In this document: piece by piece, positions 1-52,599 of the stretch
Layout of the letters: every line of letters starts with the position of its first letter
Numbering within the stretch: the stretch's first letter is position 1
The notes under the pieces: generated by a model
Databases searched by the model: none
Told to the model about the DNA's origin: nothing
The model's input: the letters and a program-made list of their open reading frames with translations, nothing else
Made by a program: the position numbers and the translations under genes
Virus record (IMG/VR): IMGVR_UViG_3300032038_000028
Location: 48,853 to 112,852 of that record
DNA: 64,000 nt
Direction: 5' to 3' (one strand)
DNA from: a virus
Lineage: Duplodnaviria; Caudoviricetes

Positions 1-576
1 GCCGACGATGGCGTAGTCGTCAATCATGTCGGCAGGAGGCGTCAAGTCGAACGTCAGGTTGAAGAAGGCCGGCTCAGCCCCGCCGCGGCTGTTGCTGTTG
101 ACGGAGAAGATGAAGTTCTGCATCGACTGCTTGACTTCGTTGTAGCTGAGCTTGTCCGCCTTGATGAACGGAGCAAGCAGGGTGTCGAAGCTGTTAAAAG
201 CAACGGCTCCCATGATCTCGTTCTGAAACACGGTGACCAGATTCGCGCACTGGTTGAGCACGGAATCAAAGTGCTTGGCCGGGGCGGATACGGGGATGTT
301 GGACACGCCACGGACGCCTTTATAGAGGATGTCCTTCAGGGAGTACCCGCAGCAGTACAGCGTCAGCCCGCCCAGATCGTGGATATGAATATGGCCATCG
401 ACGTAGGCCTGAGAGATGTACTCCGGGTACACCTCCCGGAGCCAGTAGTCCTTGCTGACCTCGGCGGTCATGTATTTGTTGAGCGCTCCGAAGGAAAACG
501 GGCTGTTGGAATTCTCCTTGGTGCGCCAGTCGGACTTCTTCAGGTACGCTTCGACGATGGCCTTGGAATTCTTCAT
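1..576 (-). CDS. nrdD: anaerobic (class III) ribonucleoside-triphosphate reductase, runs off the window edge
   Basis: Not in ORF track. Translated by hand from ATG at 576: MKNSKAIVEAYLKKSDWRTKENSN...GHIHIHDLGGLTLYCCGYSL...PAKHFDS...QNEIMGAVAFNSFDTLLAPF, typical NrdD motifs. Frame stays open to position 1. Confidence 0.93.
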   Translation of the reverse strand, partial: MKNSKAIVEAYLKKSDWRTKENSNSPFSFGALNKYMTAEVSKDYWLREVYPEYISQAYVDGHIHIHDLGGLTLYCCGYSLKDILYKGVRGVSNIPVSAPAKHFDSVLNQCANLVTVFQNEIMGAVAFNSFDTLLAPFIKADKLSYNEVKQSMQNFIFSVNSNSRGGAEPAFFNLTFDLTPPADMIDDYAIVG

Positions 577-2721: not shown

Positions 2722-5700
2722 TCAGCTGGCTTCTGCCAGCCTGTAACGGCACAGGTAGTAATATGTCCGCCCGTTGTAGGTCTTCGGGTACCATGAGTTG
2801 GTGTAGACCGGTTTGCCGCTGCCGGTCTCCGGGACGACGCGCAGGATGTCGCCCTTGGCGAACTGCTCCAGATAGCTGCCGTCCTTGATCGTCCACTCAT
2901 GGGTGCCACCGTCCTTCAGGCTGACTGCCGTAAAGGAGTAGGCCCACGGCTTGCCTGTCTTCTTGGACGTCAGGACGCGCACGTCGGACGTGACGTAGAG
3001 GAGAGCTTTGCCGTCGTTCCCCAGCGGTTCGACGTAGCCGAGGTACTCCATCTGGGCGCGGGCCCTTTCGGATGGCTTCGGCGGCGGGAGATGCTGAGAG
3101 CGGACATGGGCTTCGCACAGGGACAGGAGCTTCGGCATGTCGGTGATCGTCCAGCTCTTGAGCGTACCCGCCTTGCCCTGGTCGGTAGCGGCCGACTCAA
3201 TGATGCCCGACAGGCGGTAGGCTTCCACCTTGTCCTTGGCGACGCGGGTGAGCGTGCCCTTGTTGAGCTCGGTGAAGTAGGCGTTGATGGCGGTCAGCTC
3301 CGACGGATTGCCGAAGGCGGCGAAGAAGTCGAGCTGGATCAGGATGTCGAGCTGCAGGGAATTGAGGCTGGTCTCCTGGTCGATCACCTTCAGGACATCC
3401 ATGAAGGAAGCGTCCTGCGGCAGATGCTGAGCGGCTTCGTACAGCTGGTCAGCCACGTCTGCGTTCAGATGCTTGATGGACAGCAGCCCCTTGTAGATGA
3501 CGCCGTTTTCGGTATCGAACATGTAGTCGGCCCGGCTGTGGCCCCATCGTGGCGGGGAAACGGTGACGCCGTGGCTTCTGGCGTAGGCGATGACGGCCGC
3601 CGTCTTATCCGCCTTGTCGGCGTAGACGTTGAGCGCCGCCGCTACGAAGGGGAGCGGGTAGTGATAGCGCAGATAGCCGATGGCATAGCCGATCATTGCA
3701 TAGGCCAGGGCGTGGTTGCGGCTGAAGCTGTAGGAAGAGGCGTCCAGTATGGTCTGAATGAACGGCTTGACGATCTGCTGTGCCTTCTCCTTGGTGACGT
3801 CGTCGTAATGGGCCGGAGCGTATTCGACAAAGCGCCGCTCGATCTCCGGCAGAAGGGATTCCGTGCCCTTCTTCTTGGCGATGGCGCGGCGGACGCTGTC
3901 GGCTTCGCTGCCGGAGTAGCCGCAGAAGAGCTCCAGCCATTTCATAACTGTTTCCTGATAGGTTGCGAACCCGGCTTCGTCTGCGAGGAAATCATTCAGC
4001 GCCTTACAGCCGTTGTCGCGCACCTTCCCTTCCGCTACCTGATCACGGTAGGATGCGCTGCCGGGCCGGAGAAGGCCAGAGGCGAATGCGAACCAGTCGA
4101 TCATGCGGAAGCCAGGGTTGCGGGAGCGGGCCAGAGCGATGATGTCGGGGGACAGAAACTTCTTCAGATAGGCCGTGGCCTGTGCGGATTCAAACTGGAA
4201 GATGCAGGTCGTGTCTTCCCGGATGGACTGCCAGACCTTTGCGTCTTCCATGTCCATGTTGTCCGGCGTCAGCCGTTCGATGCCGGCGTAACGGCAGGCG
4301 CGGTTGATCAGGTCGTTGGAATCCAGCCCGAGCTCGTCCATCTTGACCAGATTCAGGCTGTCCAGCTCCTTCATGTTGAGGCAGGTGATGGGGTAGTTGG
4401 AGCCGGAGGAGGTACACAGACCGATCTCTGCGGCGACGTCGTGGTCGGTGACCAGCACGCCGCAGGGGTGAGACCCGTAGGAAACGACAGTGCCGCTGAC
4501 AATATCCACGTACTCAAACAGCTCCGGGTATTTTGCCCGCACCTCGTCCGGTACATTCCCATCTGCGTCCACCGCCTTGGTCAGCTTATCCACTTCATCC
4601 AGCGGCAGGTTGTCTGCCCGGGCGATGTCGCGGATGGCGCCCTTGGTGGCGATGGTGTTGAAGGTGATGATCTCCGCCGTCTGAATCCCGGAGAAACCCA
4701 TCTTGTCGTCCAGCAGATATTTCTTGGCCAGCTCCCGGTCTGCTTCGGCGTAGTCCACGTCGATGTCGGCGAGGGATACGCGCTCCGGGTTCATGAAGCG
4801 GAAGAAGTTGAGGCCGTACTCCATGGCGTCCACGTCGGTAATACCGGTGACGTAGGCACACATGGAGCCGGTGACGGATCCTCTGCCGTAGCCGGTGGCG
4901 ATGCCGTGTTCCTGTTCCCACATGTGCTGGTGATACTTGAGCGCCATGTAGGGGGAGGCGCCGCACTTTTCAAACACGGCCAGCTCCTCGTCCAGACGGC
5001 GGAACAGGGCTTCCCGCCCGTGCCGCTGCATGGCGTAGGGGTGGCGCTCCGCTGCCTGATACACTTCGTCCCGCCAGAGCTTCACCGGGTCGGCAAAGAC
5101 GTTGGGGTATTTGATGGAGCGGTCGACGGTGAAGGGCTCAATCATGTCGGCGAAGTGATTGGTCTCGTCGATGGCGGCCAGGAAGACAGCTTCGGGCAGG
5201 GAATTCTGAGCACGGTAAGCGTTGACCAGCTCGTCGTAGCTCATAAAGCGCAGGTTCCAGTCCGCTTCGTTGTCAAACCGGACGCCCTTGCCCTGCTGGA
5301 GCTTGACCCTGCCCCGGGCATGGCGCTCGTTGAGGGCGTGACTGTCTGTCCCGGCGATCAGCGGGATGCCATAGCGTTTGGAGTAATCCCACAGCTTCTG
5401 GTTGTACTGGGCCTGCTCGGCGACCAGATGGTGCTGGATCTCCAGCCAGCAGCGGCTCCTGTTTGCCCGCATGAAGCGGAGAAACCGCTCCTCGTCTTCC
5501 GACTTACCGTTGAGCGGGCCGCCCAGACAGGCGGAGGTGACGAGGATGTTGTCCGATGTCCCCTCCAGATCGTCCATGAAGATGCGGGGAACGTAGTAGA
5601 AGTGAGTGGTCTCCTTGCGCTCGAAGGAACCGGAGACCAGACGGTTCAGCTCCAGAAAGCCGTCGTAATTCCGGGCGTACAGGATGACGTGATAGTTGTC

Positions 5701-5949
5701 GCGCACCTTTTCCTCCGGGTGCATGGTGACATAGGCTTCCACGCCGTGCAGATACTTCATCCCGGCCTGCTCGACAGATTCTTTTTTGTGCAGCCACTCG
5801 TCGATGTTCCCGTGTTCCGAAAAGCCGAAGGCCTTTATGCCCAGCTCCGCCGCCCGGGCGGTGTACTGGTAGTACCGGGACACCGAGTCGATGTTGGTGG
5901 TGCAGTTGGACAGCATGGTATGTACGTGATAGGGGACGTAATTCTTCAT
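2722..5949 (-). CDS. dnaE: DNA polymerase III alpha subunit (C-family)
   Basis: PHP domain (HVH, EHGN, GVEAY, SACLGG, TDSH), GRGS, RFMNPER, catalytic DIDVD, KMDELGL, YSFSRNHALAY. Confidence 0.97.
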   Translation of the reverse strand: MKNYVPYHVHTMLSNCTTNIDSVSRYYQYTARAAELGIKAFGFSEHGNIDEWLHKKESVEQAGMKYLHGVEAYVTMHPEEKVRDNYHVILYARNYDGFLELNRLVSGSFERKETTHFYYVPRIFMDDLEGTSDNILVTSACLGGPLNGKSEDEERFLRFMRANRSRCWLEIQHHLVAEQAQYNQKLWDYSKRYGIPLIAGTDSHALNERHARGRVKLQQGKGVRFDNEADWNLRFMSYDELVNAYRAQNSLPEAVFLAAIDETNHFADMIEPFTVDRSIKYPNVFADPVKLWRDEVYQAAERHPYAMQRHGREALFRRLDEELAVFEKCGASPYMALKYHQHMWEQEHGIATGYGRGSVTGSMCAYVTGITDVDAMEYGLNFFRFMNPERVSLADIDVDYAEADRELAKKYLLDDKMGFSGIQTAEIITFNTIATKGAIRDIARADNLPLDEVDKLTKAVDADGNVPDEVRAKYPELFEYVDIVSGTVVSYGSHPCGVLVTDHDVAAEIGLCTSSGSNYPITCLNMKELDSLNLVKMDELGLDSNDLINRACRYAGIERLTPDNMDMEDAKVWQSIREDTTCIFQFESAQATAYLKKFLSPDIIALARSRNPGFRMIDWFAFASGLLRPGSASYRDQVAEGKVRDNGCKALNDFLADEAGFATYQETVMKWLELFCGYSGSEADSVRRAIAKKKGTESLLPEIERRFVEYAPAHYDDVTKEKAQQIVKPFIQTILDASSYSFSRNHALAYAMIGYAIGYLRYHYPLPFVAAALNVYADKADKTAAVIAYARSHGVTVSPPRWGHSRADYMFDTENGVIYKGLLSIKHLNADVADQLYEAAQHLPQDASFMDVLKVIDQETSLNSLQLDILIQLDFFAAFGNPSELTAINAYFTELNKGTLTRVAKDKVEAYRLSGIIESAATDQGKAGTLKSWTITDMPKLLSLCEAHVRSQHLPPPKPSERARAQMEYLGYVEPLGNDGKALLYVTSDVRVLTSKKTGKPWAYSFTAVSLKDGGTHEWTIKDGSYLEQFAKGDILRVVPETGSGKPVYTNSWYPKTYNGRTYYYLCRYRLAEAS

Positions 5950-9208: not shown

Positions 9209-9934
9209 TTACTTCTGTTGCTTATCCAGATAAGCGCTGACGGCGGCGTAGATGTTCTGCGCGTCCTCAAGCGACTTGATCTTCAGGTAGTTGCTGGACG
9301 GTTTTCCGTCGATCTTCAGGTTCTTCTTGATCAGGGCGGTGATCTCAGCCTTGTTTTCCTCGGTCAGGTTGGCGCGGATCAGGGTGTCCAGCTGGCCGAC
9401 CAGCAGGGTGACGGCTGCGGCTTCCTCTGCATCCGCTGCTTCGCTCTTCTTGCGTTTCCATTCGTCGGGATCATCTTCCGGCGTGGCGATGCCGAAAAAC
9501 TTCATCATGAAGTAGCGGTTGGAGTAGGTGAAGGAAGAGCCGACGGCCTGAGAGTCGTCCGCCTGCGATCCGACGAGCGGCCAGGGGACGACGATCGCAT
9601 CGTCCGGGTTGTCAGTGTTGACGACCCTGAAGTTCAGCCAGCCGCGCACGCAGTATTCCGACTGCGGATCGTCGATGTAGGACTGGGTCGCCTTGTCGAA
9701 CTTCTTCTTGATGAAGTCCCGGCGCTCGATGCTGAAGGACGACATGTCCGGGATGGGGTAAATGAAGAGGTTGTACTTGTCCAGACCGGCTTTGACCTTG
9801 GCCAGAACCTCGTCTTCTGATACGTAGCGGTAGCCGTAGCCGGACTTGTTCTTGGCGATGACGTCCGCAATGGAGCGGACCTTCGCCAGCTTCTGCCACA
9901 GATTCATGGTGGCGGTGTCGATGCTTTCTGCCAT
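9209..9934 (-). CDS. erf: ERF-family single-strand annealing protein
   Basis: NLWQKL...KNKSGYGYRY; QAVGSSFTYSNRYFMMKFFGIATPEDDPD matches the ERF GSxxTYxxRY motif. Confidence 0.9.
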   Translation of the reverse strand: MAESIDTATMNLWQKLAKVRSIADVIAKNKSGYGYRYVSEDEVLAKVKAGLDKYNLFIYPIPDMSSFSIERRDFIKKKFDKATQSYIDDPQSEYCVRGWLNFRVVNTDNPDDAIVVPWPLVGSQADDSQAVGSSFTYSNRYFMMKFFGIATPEDDPDEWKRKKSEAADAEEAAAVTLLVGQLDTLIRANLTEENKAEITALIKKNLKIDGKPSSNYLKIKSLEDAQNIYAAVSAYLDKQQK

Positions 9935-9978
9935 ACAAACTCCTTTGCAGTTTCAATAAAAAAGGTCAGCCGGCCGGG

Positions 9979-10004
9979 ATGACTCAGGTCAACTGACGCA
10001 TAAT
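9979..10004 (-). promoter_or_regulatory. ATTATGCGTCAGTTGACCTGAGTCAT element upstream of the replication operon
   Basis: 24 of 25 nt match the repeat at 51690-51714, in the same orientation relative to transcription. Confidence 0.7.
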
Positions 10005-10020
10005 AAGGGAGTATCCTATA

Positions 10021-27227: not shown

Positions 27228-27267
27228 AATTTACCTTCCTTTCTGGCTCCGTTGAGCCTGTACAATG

Positions 27268-27329
27268 TAGCCTGTCTCGTCAGTAACGGGCGGCCATTCC
27301 CGTCAGACCGCCCGAAGGCGGTTTCGACA
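27268..27329 (-). ncRNA. type II hammerhead ribozyme (HH1)
   Basis: GUC-GAAA-CCGCC(UUCG)GGCGG-UC^-UGACGGG(AAUGGCCG)CCCGUUA-CUGACGA-GAC; loop UGGCC can pair with 3' GGCUA. Confidence 0.93.
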
Positions 27330-33427: not shown

Positions 33428-33684
33428 GTGTTTTTTGGCATGGACGAAAAACCGCCCCACATAAAACCAGCATATTCAACCGCCGCGCCGCGCGTCTTTT
33501 CCTGCCGCCGTCAGCCGTCACCCGTCAGCGATGGACGCGCCGCCGCCCTGATCAGTACACCGCGCGCGCGGTTCGCTCTTCACCACAAACGCGAACCCCG
33601 CCCCGGCGGGAAGCCCATCCCCCGGCGGTTTTAAGGCATGGCAACCGCCAGAAAAATGGCTCGCCAGGTAAGCTCTTCCATCTT

Positions 33685-33734
33685 CCAACCCCGAAATCCA
33701 ACCCCGAAATCCAAAGCCCGAAATTCAACCCCCG
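33685..33734 (+). repeat. 13-bp tandem repeat CCAACCCCGAAAT
   Basis: Two exact and two degenerate copies. Confidence 0.85.
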
Positions 33735-34030: not shown

Positions 34031-34972
34031 ATGAGCGAACTGGCTTACAGGCATCAGGAGAGCAACATCTACACGGAGACCGAAGGCAACCTTACCAGGA
34101 TCTTCTTCGGCCAGAGCGAAGCGATGGGCGAGAACAGAGCACCGTCAGGTGCGGGATTTTTCGGCCAGAGCGAAGCGATGGACACTGCCGCGCCCGATCT
34201 CTATCAGGCCGCTACGACCGACGATCACCTGACGCCCCGCCAGAAGGAGCTCGCCAAACCCGACAGCCGTGACATGGCTGTCGTCCCCCTGGAGAGCTAC
34301 GATCAGGTGCGCAGCCTGATCGACTGGTTCGAGAGCAAACAGGATTACCGCGACGCCTGCCTGCTGACCTTCGGGTTCTGCACCGGCCTGCGGATCTCCG
34401 ACCTGCTGAACCTGAAGATCAGCGACATCGTGGAGAGCATCAAGCCCATGGTCTTCAAGCGGGCTATCGACATCCGCGAGCAGAAGACCGGCAAGCGCAC
34501 GGTCGGCCACCTTGACGACATGCTGATCACCCAGGCGATGCAGGAAGCCTTCAGCCGCTACATGGACAGGAAGCCCTACCCAGAGCTCGAGCCTGACCGT
34601 TATCTGTTCACGTCCATGTATACGCATGGCAACAAACCGATGAGCATCAGGGCGATCCAGAAAGTGCTGACTCCCGCCTTCGCAGCAGTCTGCCCCCACC
34701 TTCACTGCTCCACCCATACGATGCGCAAGACCTTCGTCTCGATCATTCACACCTTTGCGACCCAGGCCACGATGACCGGCGCCGGGATCAACCCCGCTAC
34801 CGCCTGCCAGATCGCCCTGCGTCACGCGAACGCCGCTACGACGATGGCGTACATGGGCACGATGAAGTCCGGGATGCTGTCCCTGCGCCAGGCCGTAAGT
34901 GATTTCGTGATGGGCAGGACCAAGATTCGCAGCCTGAAGACGCAGTATTCGTGGGAGCTCGTGGACGACTGA
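34031..34972 (+). CDS. tyrosine recombinase/integrase family protein
   Basis: TGLRISD (R), EQKTGK (K), THTMRKTF (HxxR), LRHANAATTMAY (H, Y). Confidence 0.93.
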   Translation: MSELAYRHQESNIYTETEGNLTRIFFGQSEAMGENRAPSGAGFFGQSEAMDTAAPDLYQAATTDDHLTPRQKELAKPDSRDMAVVPLESYDQVRSLIDWFESKQDYRDACLLTFGFCTGLRISDLLNLKISDIVESIKPMVFKRAIDIREQKTGKRTVGHLDDMLITQAMQEAFSRYMDRKPYPELEPDRYLFTSMYTHGNKPMSIRAIQKVLTPAFAAVCPHLHCSTHTMRKTFVSIIHTFATQATMTGAGINPATACQIALRHANAATTMAYMGTMKSGMLSLRQAVSDFVMGRTKIRSLKTQYSWELVDD

Positions 34973-48486: not shown

Positions 48487-51042
48487 ATGCAGGCGCCGCC
48501 GCTGTACATTGTCCGGTCGATTGATCTGAGGACGCTGGTCGCCAATGACTACGTGCTCAACATTTCGCCGGAGGAAGAAAAGAAATACCTGATCAAGCAG
48601 GCGGACAGCCCCTATCTGCGGCTGATCAGGCAGGTGACCGGGGTGACGTCAAGATATAACCCGTTCATCATCTTCGTTGACATCAACTACCACAAGGACA
48701 TCGCGCTGGTGATCTCGACGCTGGTGCGGAACGGGATCCGGGTGCGGGGCAGGAAGTTTGTGATGGCAGAGAGGAGCGCGTCCATGGTTCGCCAGGGCGT
48801 GCTTTCTTTTATCGACGCCGGGATCGCGGACATCATGCTGGAAAAGGTGACTATGGGGCTGAGCATCGGTGAAACGGTGCTCAGCAAATGGTACGCCTAC
48901 CGCGGCCTGCTGCTGAGCTCGGCTCACTGCGTGGAGGACTACCTGCCGAAATTCATTGTGGTGCCGGACTGGATGACGACCGTCAGCAATCAGCACATCC
49001 GGTACCTGTACGATGATAAAAAGACCTACGTCAACCAGGAAGGGAAGTCCTTCGAGTGGACGCAGAAGAACGTGGCCAGCGACATCCGCGACATCACGAT
49101 TAACGCGTTCGACGGCATGGGGATCATGCACAGGAACATCGCGGCCGAGATCGAGCGACGGACACACAGCACCACGCCGATCACCACCTGTATCTTTCGC
49201 GCCCCCTTCATCAAGGGCTGCCTGCATGCGATCGACTACGAGGCGTTCTTTGAGGAGCGCGGGGTTGAGTACATTCAGGATATCTGGGGCAGATACCACA
49301 GCGTCCACGATGAAATGGTTATCCTGACGGAGAGCATGTATAAGGGCCTCAAGTATTTCAAGCTTTATGGTGACAGTCGGGACTGGGATCGGTACTGGGA
49401 TCTGTTTCAGAAGTACGGCCACTGCATTGCGATCGCCCGGACAAACTTCACCGAAGACGAAGAGCCGGTGTACACCCGGAGCAACTATCAGATTTTGCAG
49501 ACGATGGATCTCCCGTATGCGGATTTCAGGCGTCTGGCGGATGAGAGTGTATACTGGATCAACAAGATCGTGGACGGCGACGAGCTGTACACCAAGTGCT
49601 TCCTCGGGATCGTGGACGGCAAGTGTAATGCCCTGAACCCGTACGTGGCAGCCATTGCGAAGAATGACGACATGATGCGGGAGCCGACGATCAGGCGGTA
49701 CGTGATCTCGCTGGTCGAGAAGTACATGGACGACATGAAGTGCGGGAAGCTGTACATCAAGTCATGCTTCAAGTTCGCCATGCCGGACATGATCGCCTTT
49801 CTGGAACACATCGGCGGCCTGCCGGTAAAAGGTGTGCTGGGGCCGGACGAATTCTGGACGCAGGCAAAGTATGTGAAGTACGACGGCGAATATCTGGTGA
49901 CGCGCAACCCGCACATCTGCAAGTCGGAGAACGTGGTGCTCAGGCAGAACAACGACCCGGAGATCCTGAAGTGGTGCGGGCATCTGACCAACGTGGCGAT
50001 GGTGAATGTAAAGAGTCTGGTAGCGCAGAGATTGAACGGGATGGATTTTGACGGGGACATCATCCTGATCAATGACCACCCCCTGATGCTGCAGGGGTCA
50101 GATAAGAACGCGCTGATCACCATTGACGTAGAGGACAAGGTGACGGCGTTGGCCGAAGAAGACACGGAGATCGGACGGATCGCCCTGATCTCCAGAACCA
50201 CGAAGAACATGATCGGCGAGTTCAGCAACTACGCCAGCGTGTATCTGAACCGCATCCCGCAGAAGGAAGAGCAGAAGAAGCGGTATGACGATTTCCTGTC
50301 GACGATCAGCGTGACCGTCGGAAAATCCATTGACTACGCAAAGACCGGGGTGCTGTACCCCATGCCGCGGGTGATCAGCAAATACGGCCGGCCGCTTCCA
50401 TACTTCATGCGCTACCGTTCACCCTACTACGCCAGACAGCAGCTGGCCCGGGCACCGAGCAACATGAACCGGCTGTGCTGGGAGCTGGAGCGGTGGGAGC
50501 GTGGGATACGCTGGAAGAAGGAAGGCCGGTTCGACTGGCATCTGATGTATGATGACAACGTGACCTACACCAACGAACAGTTTGAAGCAGTGGAAAAGCT
50601 CTTCCTGGATTTCTGCGCGGAGGTATCACGCGTCCAGAAATATCAGGCGTTGGTGCGGAAGTATCAGGCGAAGGATATCCGGGAGAAGTACACGAGGGCG
50701 GAAGCGTCCTCCTATATCGCCGATTGGGACAGCCTGTACCGGCGGTATAAGGAGCTGGGAAAACAGGTCTGCCCGGACGAGCGGGTGCTGGCCAACATCG
50801 GTGTGATCTTGACGTACGTCAAGTATAAATCCCGGGGAAAGAAGTTCCCGTGGATTGTGGCGCCGGACGGGCTGATTCAGAACATCCGCCCGAAAGACCT
50901 GATGTATATACCGGAACAGTGCGACGACGGAGCGTGTACCTATCTGGGCAAGCCGTACAAGCTGGTGCCCAAACTGGCGGATGATCTGGAGCTGAGCCTG
51001 GAGCCGGATATTTTTGATGATCTGGAGGGATGGAATGGTTGA
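48487..51042 (+). CDS. yonO: YonO-like single-subunit two-barrel RNA polymerase
   Basis: SASMVRQG, AFDGMG, RAPFIKG, VTRNPH, catalytic NGMDFDGD and IDYAKTG; upstream of SPbeta-like head genes. Confidence 0.88.
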   Translation: MQAPPLYIVRSIDLRTLVANDYVLNISPEEEKKYLIKQADSPYLRLIRQVTGVTSRYNPFIIFVDINYHKDIALVISTLVRNGIRVRGRKFVMAERSASMVRQGVLSFIDAGIADIMLEKVTMGLSIGETVLSKWYAYRGLLLSSAHCVEDYLPKFIVVPDWMTTVSNQHIRYLYDDKKTYVNQEGKSFEWTQKNVASDIRDITINAFDGMGIMHRNIAAEIERRTHSTTPITTCIFRAPFIKGCLHAIDYEAFFEERGVEYIQDIWGRYHSVHDEMVILTESMYKGLKYFKLYGDSRDWDRYWDLFQKYGHCIAIARTNFTEDEEPVYTRSNYQILQTMDLPYADFRRLADESVYWINKIVDGDELYTKCFLGIVDGKCNALNPYVAAIAKNDDMMREPTIRRYVISLVEKYMDDMKCGKLYIKSCFKFAMPDMIAFLEHIGGLPVKGVLGPDEFWTQAKYVKYDGEYLVTRNPHICKSENVVLRQNNDPEILKWCGHLTNVAMVNVKSLVAQRLNGMDFDGDIILINDHPLMLQGSDKNALITIDVEDKVTALAEEDTEIGRIALISRTTKNMIGEFSNYASVYLNRIPQKEEQKKRYDDFLSTISVTVGKSIDYAKTGVLYPMPRVISKYGRPLPYFMRYRSPYYARQQLARAPSNMNRLCWELERWERGIRWKKEGRFDWHLMYDDNVTYTNEQFEAVEKLFLDFCAEVSRVQKYQALVRKYQAKDIREKYTRAEASSYIADWDSLYRRYKELGKQVCPDERVLANIGVILTYVKYKSRGKKFPWIVAPDGLIQNIRPKDLMYIPEQCDDGACTYLGKPYKLVPKLADDLELSLEPDIFDDLEGWNG

Positions 51043-51664
51043 CGAAATGGCGGAAGCCAGAAAGTATTTGAGCGGGCAGCAGCTCGAGCAGAAGGGAAAT
51101 CTGTATCGCGCCTGTTATATGGTCGCCAAGTACTACAAGCAGCTCGGCTGTGACGAAGAGGCGATCTTTCAAAAGACAGCCGAGTGGGTCAGGACGTACA
51201 ACCTGACCCTCGGCTTTTCTCTGGCCGGATGTATCGCCGCGGCGTATATGAACGATAGGGAACTGCGCAACGGAAATGTCGTCCGCATTTCCAAAGAGGA
51301 TGCGGACACCATTCGGCTGTACGCGTTAAACAAGGCAGACAGACGGGTGGCCCTCGCGCTGCTGTGCTGTGCGAAAGGCTATGCAGGATCCGACGGTTCG
51401 TTTGTGGCCAGCAGCGGCGCCATTGGCAGTTGGCTTGGGATGGACGCTGGTAATGTGCGTAGCCGTTATATCCCAAGGCTTGTTAAGATTGGTTATATCG
51501 AAAAGCTCCCGACGCAGGAAACAATTCGCGGCTGGCAAAAAAACTATTACCGCAACGCTTACAGGCTTCGCTTGAAAGTGCCGTATCGTGATGACGGGGA
51601 ATGGGAGCTACGCAACAACGATATCCGGACATTGTATACACAGGTTTTCGATGAGCCGTTTTAA
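51035..51664 (+). CDS. RNAP-coupled hypothetical protein with possible winged HTH
   Basis: Overlaps the RNAP stop; SSGAIGSWLGMDAGNVRSRYIPRLVKIGYIE. Confidence 0.7.
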   Translation: MVDEMAEARKYLSGQQLEQKGNLYRACYMVAKYYKQLGCDEEAIFQKTAEWVRTYNLTLGFSLAGCIAAAYMNDRELRNGNVVRISKEDADTIRLYALNKADRRVALALLCCAKGYAGSDGSFVASSGAIGSWLGMDAGNVRSRYIPRLVKIGYIEKLPTQETIRGWQKNYYRNAYRLRLKVPYRDDGEWELRNNDIRTLYTQVFDEPF

Positions 51665-51689
51665 CGCGCCTGTTATTGGGTAGGAAATA

Positions 51690-51744
51690 ATTATGCGTCA
51701 GTTGACCTGCGTCACTTGACCCGCGTCAGTTGACCTGCGTCATC
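51690..51744 (+). repeat. 14-bp tandem repeat GCGTCAGTTGACCT (about 3.5 copies)
   Basis: GCGTCAGTTGACCT GCGTCACTTGACCC GCGTCAGTTGACCT GCGTCA. Confidence 0.92.
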
Positions 51745-51775
51745 TCCTGCCACTAAGCTGAACTACGGAGGCTAT

Positions 51776-51943
51776 ATGATCAGAATCGACAAGGATGAAG
51801 CGGCTTATCTGCGCGAACGGTTTCCGGATGTAACCATTACCCGGACGATGAAGCAGAGGAGCAAACGCCACCGCTATTACGTCGAGGAATCCCGAAAGGT
51901 CCTTGGCGCGCTGGATAAATACAGAAGGGGTGGTGTACGATGA
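51776..51943 (+). CDS. small basic protein (55 aa)
   Basis: GGAGG SD; MIRIDKDEAAYLR...KRHRYYVEE; below the ORF-track cutoff. Confidence 0.7.
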   Translation: MIRIDKDEAAYLRERFPDVTITRTMKQRSKRHRYYVEESRKVLGALDKYRRGGVR

Positions 51944-52599
51944 AGAAACTTGACGGAGAAATCATGCTGCCGGTCATCCAGACGTGCGGCAGTCTTGCGA
52001 ACATGCAGCTCCCCGACCCGGAGCTTCTGCAGGATTACCGGGACGACGCCCGGAGGGTCTACTGGCTGGACGACGAGATCACCGCAATGGACAACCTGTT
52101 CATCCGGCGCCTGATCGACTGGAATCAGGAAGACATCGGCAGGCCTCCCGAAGAGCGCAAGCCTGTCTATCTGATGATCGACACGCCCGGCGGGGCGCTG
52201 GATACGACGTTCGCTCTGATCGACGCGATTCAGGCCAGCCAGACGCCGGTGATCGGCGTGGTCAACGGCATCGCCTACAGCGGCGGCTTCTACGTGCTAC
52301 TCGCCTGCAACAGGCGGCTGGGCATGAAGCACAGCAGCTACATGATGCACCGCGGCAGCGGCGAAGTCAGCGCGCCTGACCAGCGGGCTGCCGAGATGTT
52401 CATGAAGCAGTGGAGCTCTCAGGTGAAGACGCTGACCGACTACGTGGTGGATCGTACGGATATGACATCCCGCGAAGTCAAGAAAGCCATCGACACGGAT
52501 ACCTACTATTCTGCGGACGAAGCGCTGAAGAAAGGCATCCTGACTGACCTGATCAGTTCCTACGACGTGCTGCTCGAAGATATGGCCAGTATTGAATAG
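51940..52599 (+). CDS. clpP: ClpP-like protease
   Basis: IDTPGG, AYSGG (Ser), MMHRG (His), DTYYSADEALKKG. Confidence 0.92.
   Translation: MKKLDGEIMLPVIQTCGSLANMQLPDPELLQDYRDDARRVYWLDDEITAMDNLFIRRLIDWNQEDIGRPPEERKPVYLMIDTPGGALDTTFALIDAIQASQTPVIGVVNGIAYSGGFYVLLACNRRLGMKHSSYMMHRGSGEVSAPDQRAAEMFMKQWSSQVKTLTDYVVDRTDMTSREVKKAIDTDTYYSADEALKKGILTDLISSYDVLLEDMASIE

Follow-up and report, generated by a model that had tools for sequence, protein, structure and literature searches.

The stretch examined here (the window) is a 64,000-nucleotide piece of viral DNA from IMG/VR record IMGVR_UViG_3300032038_000028, comprising the final 64 kb (48853-112852) of a 112,852-bp record rated 100% complete. Within it, the gene of a YonO-like RNA polymerase overlaps the gene of a 209-residue protein, termed here the partner, behind which stands a tandem repeat, site A; a shorter site of the same kind, site B, lies on the opposite strand ahead of a replication operon. 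The coordinates of features are window positions, while borders of gene blocks, given in kb, are whole-genome positions. The principal features are listed below, with lengths in nucleotides (nt) or amino acids (aa).

48487..51042, plus strand: predicted RNA polymerase of 851 aa, YonO-like, single-chain and of the two-barrel type; penultimate gene of the rightward early block
51035..51042, plus strand: 8-nt overlap ATGGTTGA, containing the ATG start of the partner and the TGA stop of the polymerase
51035..51664, plus strand: partner protein, 209 aa, with a predicted N-terminal four-helix domain (aa 1-72) and winged helix (about aa 79-207)
51683..51694, plus strand: box GGAAATAATTAT, found by eye, abutting the first repeat of site A
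51695..51744, plus strand: site A, with 14-nt units at 51695, 51709 and 51723 and a partial fourth (GCGTCATC), ending 31 nt before the first late gene
51776..51943, plus strand: small conserved protein of 55 aa, the first gene past site A, at the head of the late block
10005-10016, minus strand: counterpart of the box at site B, of the (TAT)GRAAWAC type, found by eye
9977..10004, minus strand: site B, ATTATGCGTCAGTTGACCTGaGTCATCC, about 1.5 repeat units, between the ParB-like and ERF genes, with an exact 14-mer at 9986-9999
9209..9934, minus strand: ERF-family gene (PF04404, E 9.4e-15), the first gene of the replication/recombination block

An earlier, sequence-only reading of this locus had described a YonO-like protein of 851 residues carrying NGMDFDGD, a stop codon overlapping a 209-aa gene, a helix-turn-helix (HTH)-like C-terminal half in the product of that gene, and a 14-bp repeat directly behind it; each of these descriptions is borne out. 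The polymerase matches the Pfam RNA-dependent RNA polymerase family PF05183 (RdRP) at E 4e-14, with 52.7 bits against a cut-off of 23.8, residues 74-650 aligning to profile positions 56-571 of 582. It also matches phrog_8308 (E 3.5e-70) and, with 24% identity across 613 aa (E 7e-23), YonO of phage SPbeta. The motif NGMDFDGD occupies residues 517-524, and its aspartates D520, D522 and D524 lie opposite D-N-D-G-D (FDNDGD) of YonO. All three are invariant in 22 homologs, as is a second block—G612, K613, D616, K619 and G621—that may be compatible with the second barrel. On these alignments the polymerase is a new member of the known YonO/PF05183 family; DNA-dependent RNA synthesis and transcription of the phage late genes are its predicted functions. 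In YonO itself the catalytic aspartate triad is essential. That enzyme transcribes the late genes of SPbeta as a single operon whose start site lies downstream of yonO; the promoter, and any need for extra factors, were left open by the authors of that study (PMC5467207, Forrest et al. 2017).

The association between polymerase and partner is close and recurrent. Neighbourhoods were compared across 82 polymerase loci, of which 80 were fetched from IMG/VR with a polymerase alignment and two came from GenBank phages. The partner is present in 27 of the 82, immediately downstream of the polymerase in every one of these 27, and the stop of one gene overlaps the start of the other by 8 nt or 4 nt in most of them. 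Clustering at 95% leaves 30 polymerase lineages, 19 of them with a partner. When the search was reversed and begun from a partner alignment, all 30 IMG/VR loci recovered had a polymerase gene whose end lay at most 41 nt upstream, so the conservation of the partner beside YonO homologs, which the sequence-only reading had named as a check on itself, is upheld. Among GenBank phages, the partner occurs only in the Thomasclavelia phages TR-TP1 and TR-TP2.

The remaining 55 loci have no partner within 6 kb, even with stop codons read through. In a maximum-likelihood tree of the polymerase the rows lacking a partner form one nested clade, eleven of them at 100/98 support; a twelfth such row (L084) comes from a truncated contig, and L083, which clusters with it at 95%, does have the partner. 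On sequence grounds this nesting fits a single loss of the partner. The two partner-less lineages examined both encode a zinc-ribbon protein of 86-87 aa close behind the polymerase: in one (L030:8559-8819) it is the very next gene, and in the other (L026:8829-9092) one small open reading frame intervenes. Its Pfam matches are weak and comprise the MqsA N-terminal ribbon and ribbons of the TFIIB and RPB9 types; it may be a different accessory factor of this clade. In-frame TAG codons, one or two per gene and at the same place within a lineage, are confined to polymerase genes that belong to the partner-less clade (L026-L038, L045, L048, L052, L053, L055-L059, L061, L072, L073, L078 and L086), where they may reflect either amber recoding or broken genes.

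The partner is predicted to consist of two small domains. An AlphaFold2 model built from 19 homologs has a pLDDT of 88.9, and its C-terminal half folds as a winged helix, with helices at 100-116, 127-134 and 138-151 plus strands. Comparison by VIA-align places this model closest to the CAP DNA-binding domain (Z 7.7, root-mean-square deviation 1.5 Å over 65 residues), followed by the TFE-alpha extended winged helix (Z 7.5), LexA (7.2), the N-terminal domain of DnaD (DnaD-NTD, 6.9) and the winged helices of Cdc6/ORC (6-6.8). As modeled, the fold appears to be a generic winged helix, which alone names no specific family. The N-terminal domain, folded alone, gives a best match of Z 6.0, with PriX at Z 5.9 (76 residues) and the helix bundle of RepB' at Z 5.2, values at chance level for helical domains. 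Searches for nearer relatives of known family returned little: no Pfam family matches the partner at E up to 1, Foldseek against the PDB gives no match at E < 0.001, and a partner profile against PDB sequences finds MarR alone, at E 0.034. Regions 2 and 4 of sigma-70 are likewise missing, both from the Pfam result for the partner and from the 25 commonest weak matches of 63 family members, among which there is no sigma factor.

A search of 1.8 billion protein representatives with the partner profile was more informative as to ancestry. The family comprises 180 representatives at E up to 1e-3, mostly of about 205 aa, and its most distant significant relatives (E 4e-8 to 6e-6) measure 416-526 aa, and residues 6-189 of the partner align to their C-terminal half. 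In P0275, P0282, P0289 and P0291 the matching residues, approximately 176-456, stand behind an AEP domain; PF22548 is found in all four, in three at E 3e-11 to 1e-14 and in P0282 weakly, at E 0.0013, and one of these relatives also has a weak PriCT_1 match. A structure search of the Atlas finds AEP-TOTE primase clusters at TM scores of 0.56-0.60 to the partner, along with a 579-aa cluster (TM 0.54) in which 26% of members carry RdRP. Fused forms were sought among the longer proteins and none was found, which is weak evidence. The AEP catalytic domain itself is absent from the partner, the 209 residues of which are wholly covered by the two noncatalytic domains. By this homology the partner is a distant relative of the C-terminal, noncatalytic half of AEP primases and not itself a primase; it looks like the DNA-binding/initiation half of such an enzyme turned standalone.

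Both genes of the pair attract insertions. Close relatives carry inserts of 260-1220 nt in their polymerase genes at two fixed positions, after residue 522 (within the catalytic DFD|GD) and after residue 615/616 (L021:7557-7818, L008:7848-8146, L009:7566-7861, L010:627-1665, L081:7872-8362, L083:2189-3414 and L086:6629-7587). One insert is a full-length match to an Rfam group I intron model at E 2.8e-9, its 42 bits lying below the gathering score of 50; the gene in the window is uninterrupted. Some partner homologs (P0183, P0189, P0217 and P0226) carry a C-terminal extension composed of NUMOD4 and an HNH homing endonuclease. With these extensions and the introns in the polymerase gene, the locus stands out as a hot spot of mobile endonuclease genes.

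The repeat at site A is the best tandem repeat of the window, with 3.5 copies of a 14-nt unit at 51694-51742, 88% matches and a TRF score of 84, and it begins 30 nt past the stop codon of the partner. In the entire 112,852-bp genome a 17-nt pattern drawn from it, ATGCGTCAGTTGACCTG, with up to three mismatches allowed, matches only site A and one other place, there exactly, and the reversed pattern used as a control has no match anywhere in the genome. The confinement of the 17-mer to two places, set against a control of zero, indicates that the repeat at site A is more than chance. Comparable arrays lie downstream of the partner in many lineages, as three to six direct repeats with a period of 12-14 and about half of each unit conserved. 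Their cores differ from lineage to lineage: GCGTCA, ATGTCGG, TGTATCA, TAGTCAA, TTTTCATTT, GATTCATTTT, ATTGTAA, TATACC, AAAGGTA, ATGTGC and TAGTTAA.

With only about half of the unit conserved, TRF misses most arrays, so a scan for periodic cores was used instead, requiring three copies of a 7-mer core with at most one mismatch at a period of 12-15. This strict scan places an array no farther than 200 nt past the partner stop in 8 of 17 partner-bearing lineages, where a background of 0.021 regions per kb leads one to expect about 0.07; additional arrays are recognizable by eye. In lineages lacking the partner no array was found: the scan matches upstream of the polymerase in L055 and L063 are coding runs of acidic residues, and those in L020 and L084, kilobases upstream, were not inspected. 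Because the arrays are missing from these lineages, they go with the partner and not with the polymerase itself. Neither are they tied to the 55-aa late gene, since that gene is kept in 53 of the 55 partner-less loci (homologs are found in 16 of the 27 partner-bearing ones). The 55-aa protein could be assigned to no family and does not resemble YonK of SPbeta.

A conserved box accompanies many of the arrays. Boxes of the form GRAAWAC...TAATAATG or similar precede arrays after the partner gene in L007-L009, L021, L039-L051, L116 and L139, identified by eye and without statistics. A related box, TATATGAAAGGG / TTAATATATGAAAGGG, heads the same operon, before the 55-aa gene, in part of the partner-less clade (L026, L030, L052-L056 and L063, again by eye). 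To judge from its sequence and placement, the GRAAWAC-type box may be a promoter element of the polymerase itself. As for conventional signals, a scan for sigma-70-type promoters found nothing at 51000-52000, where a weak TTGACC-18-TAAGCT visible by eye falls under the scan threshold; there is no plus-strand terminator after the partner gene, and Rfam at gathering thresholds reports no RNA family at the polymerase-partner locus.

Where a second site can be found, it has changed in concert with the first. Four genomes—the window, G001, G002 and G004—repeat their lineage-specific core at a second site on the opposite strand, the core being of the GCGTCA type in the window, the TGTATCA type in G001 and G002, and the ATTGTMA type in G004. 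The second site fronts the ERF gene in the window, in G002 and in G001, where it was located by way of that gene; in the more distant G004 it is a three-unit array 9 kb from the first. Both sites are oriented towards their downstream genes in all four genomes. A further locus, L010, offers what amounts to a natural exchange: its polymerase and that of the window share 90% identity, but the two partners share only 57% and the repeats differ. This decoupling indicates that partner and repeats change together and apart from the polymerase.

The placement of the two sites is best appreciated from the genome as a whole. The source is a large temperate phage of about 113 kb, found in sequencing runs from goat, sheep and bovine gut metagenomes. 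A gene map based on codon usage divides its genome into four strand-coherent blocks, set out here together with further genes of the replication/recombination block.

58.9-80.1 kb leftward and 80.6-100.5 kb rightward: divergent early region
58.8 to 41.6 kb, leftward, about 17 kb: replication/recombination block
100.6 kb, across the record end, to 41.2 kb, rightward, about 53 kb: late (packaging/structural) block
after the ERF gene, minus strand: genes of 125 aa and 250 aa
6092-8041, minus strand: DnaG-type primase-helicase, by family matches
2722-5949, minus strand: DnaE-like polymerase, by family matches

The early region ends with the ParB-like gene on its left arm and with the polymerase and partner on its right, and the replication and late blocks converge at 41.2-41.6 kb. 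Past the 55-aa gene, family matches identify ClpP-like, PhoH, exonuclease, phrog_3314 and large terminase genes, and the late block continues onward from there. Both same-strand borders between the early region and the outer blocks carry one repeat site each, site A on the late side and site B on the replication side. Sites at both of these borders are the layout expected if the polymerase, as the last early product, takes over both outer blocks.

We give about an even chance to a reading in which the arrays are bound by the partner, and the phage polymerase is thereby steered or gated at sites A and B. The host polymerase would presumably read the rightward early block, from whose end the phage polymerase is made, and the partner would be translated together with it. 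The winged helix of the partner would bind the direct-repeat arrays of 13-14 bp, the core of which is specific to the phage lineage, and several partner molecules assembled on an array could then, through a putative contact with the polymerase, recruit or position that enzyme. The effect would in that case be positive, with transcription perhaps starting past the array, and the polymerase would take over the middle (replication) operon from site B and the late operon from site A. Such a takeover would parallel that by YonO of the single SPbeta late operon. A bolder version, which we hold only tentatively, is that the partner is a dedicated initiation or promoter-specificity factor of single-chain two-barrel RNA polymerases, recruited from the DNA-binding/initiation module of AEP primases, and that the 13-14-bp code of a lineage can be swapped along with the factor while the polymerase stays unchanged. 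The sequence-only reading had gone some way towards this by suggesting that polymerase, specificity factor and repeat form a compact transcription system, one that might be orthogonal to that of the host. The idea of a compact system gains from the finding that arrays go with the partner and that the two sites change in concert; a strict, sigma-like specificity factor fares less well, being weighed against by the partner-less, array-less clade and by the presence of YonN after YonO.

Several observations count against a partner that directs the polymerase. A closely related polymerase clade has neither partner nor arrays within 6 kb, and YonO likewise has no partner, so the partner is not universally required. 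Should the conserved box be the core promoter, the arrays would fall within the first stretch to be transcribed, and the role of the partner could be that of a gate or repressor and not of a recruiter. In G001 and G002 the second site ends about 15 nt before a start codon, leaving little room for a leader if transcription starts past the array. With no more than two sites per genome, an ordinary regulator would fit as well, and the weak family matches of the winged helix lean towards replication proteins. RNA data lean weakly the other way. Metatranscriptome contigs across the first late genes, from four runs in three studies, begin at 51739, 51739, about 51757 and 51797; of the two starting at 51739, one has no loose end and the other has 24 unlike letters upstream, and none of the contigs listed bridges the partner gene to the late genes. 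These starts near the array are a weak hint, contig ends being different from RNA 5' ends. A complex prediction with residues 75-851 of the polymerase and the partner scored 0.00 and 0.23 against a mark of 0.32, with controls not run, a result that weighs on neither side of the question of binding.

Some of these points would sit comfortably with an ordinary phage regulator—a repressor, timer or roadblock—acting on operator arrays at the heads of two operons and delaying or gating whichever polymerase arrives, without any contact with the phage enzyme. The winged helix resembles regulators of the MarR, CRP and LexA types as much as anything else, a polymerase clade functions without the partner, and, with the box lying upstream of the arrays, transcription could start ahead of them; the second site of G001 and of G002 even abuts the ribosome-binding site. 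A regulator of this kind, however, would have no need to adjoin the polymerase gene in 30 of 30 loci or to overlap its stop codon in most lineages, nor does it account for the orientation of both sites towards their operons in all four genomes, and the homology to the noncatalytic half of a primase points instead to an origin as a polymerase accessory. On balance we consider this explanation unlikely, if the strongest of the competitors.

The replication-like features of the partner invite a different comparison, with RepA/Rep3 plasmid initiators, in which a winged-helix gene also stands beside tandem direct repeats. Here the partner would be a Rep-like origin binder and the arrays its iterons, with the polymerase making a primer or an activating transcript or being a mere neighbour. 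Weak matches to HTH_36 (13 of 63 members), Rep3_N (6 of 63, best E 0.0015) and RP-C (2 of 63), like that of the partner to phrog_8102 (E 0.067), lend this some color, as do the resemblance to DnaD-NTD and to the winged helices of Cdc6/ORC, the homology to AEP primases, the classic layout of repeats adjoining the gene and the location of the second site beside replication genes. The HTH_36 and Rep3_N matches agree with a replication-protein ancestry of the partner, yet every family match, RP-C included, is below its curated cut-off. Moreover, neither site has an AT-rich unwinding region beside it, the arrays lie only 15-45 nt ahead of start codons, the period of 12-14 bp is shorter than the usual 17-22 bp, and the two sites lie on opposite strands, each facing its operon. 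The model has one winged helix and a helical N-terminal domain where RepA-type initiators have a WH1-WH2 pair, the linkage to the polymerase is constant, and the phage has its own DnaG-type primase-helicase. An origin-binding role therefore strikes us as quite improbable. We see still less chance that the arrays are packaging (pac) sites, or sites of another DNA-binding protein, and adjoin the partner only incidentally. Small terminases often bind short repeats, and site A is 4 kb upstream of the large terminase gene; the second site, however, is some 42 kb away on the other strand at the replication operon, the arrays are lacking in precisely those phages that lack the partner even though the terminase region and the 55-aa gene are kept there, and the arrays track the partner while the polymerase stays 90% identical.

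Comparison with known phages places the partner-directed reading in context. In SPbeta the resemblance extends beyond PF05183 and the aligned aspartate triad to the position of the polymerase gene, just upstream of a late block with homologous exonuclease and terminase. There, however, yonO is followed by the HU-like yonN, a non-coding stretch of 1.7 kb, yonK and the exonuclease gene yonJ, with no gene for a 209-aa partner; the yonN-yonK spacer contains no comparable array by eye. The window phage differs further in having a second site at the head of its replication operon. TR-TP1 and TR-TP2 are nearer: their gp3, annotated "RNA-dependent RNA polymerase", is 38.5% identical to the window polymerase, and gp4 ("hypothetical protein"), 3 nt downstream, is a 209-aa homolog of the partner (28% identity, E 5e-17), followed by an HU/IHF-like gene and an exonuclease. 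They differ in that no clear array of period 13-14 follows gp4, where the intergenic stretch resembles a sigma-A promoter.

More distant parallels are functional. With the promoters of T7 RNA polymerase, and in the case of N4 RNAPII with the DNA-binding cofactor gp2, an early-made phage polymerase takes over genes of DNA metabolism and late genes from a few specific sites. Both enzymes have the unrelated T7-like (Pol A) fold, T7 recognizes its promoter unaided, and tandem repeat arrays are not known from these promoters. For AEP primases (PF22548, AEP-TOTE) the likeness resides in the C-terminal module alone, since the partner comes without the catalytic domain and is encoded beside an unrelated class of polymerase. 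The literature searched makes no mention of the conserved partner, of its ancestry in a primase module or of lineage-specific arrays heading two operons.

How polymerases of the YonO type find their start sites has been open since 2017, and the literature searched holds no later answer. This locus and its relatives supply a candidate factor, candidate DNA sites and, as in L010, natural swaps of specificity. Should the partner indeed direct the polymerase, the pair would constitute a compact unit of transcription for which nature offers many recognition sequences, each distinct from the others. On the bolder version it would be a minimal two-protein system, naturally occurring and reprogrammable, with the first promoter and cofactor to be defined for the YonO class. 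It would also be a case in which an accessory module of primases has been reused by a different class of polymerase. Even as a gate or repressor, the partner would define the switch from early to middle and late expression in widespread gut and rumen phages of approximately 100 kb.

Two other features of the window lie apart from this locus. Among the small early genes, Rfam identifies a Hammerhead_II ribozyme at 27266-27329 on the minus strand, with 49 bits against a gathering score of 37 (E 1.2e-6). The second-best tandem repeat of the window, with 3.7 copies of a 13-14-nt unit and a TRF score of 75, is at 33684-33734, just upstream of a tyrosine-recombinase gene (34031-34972).

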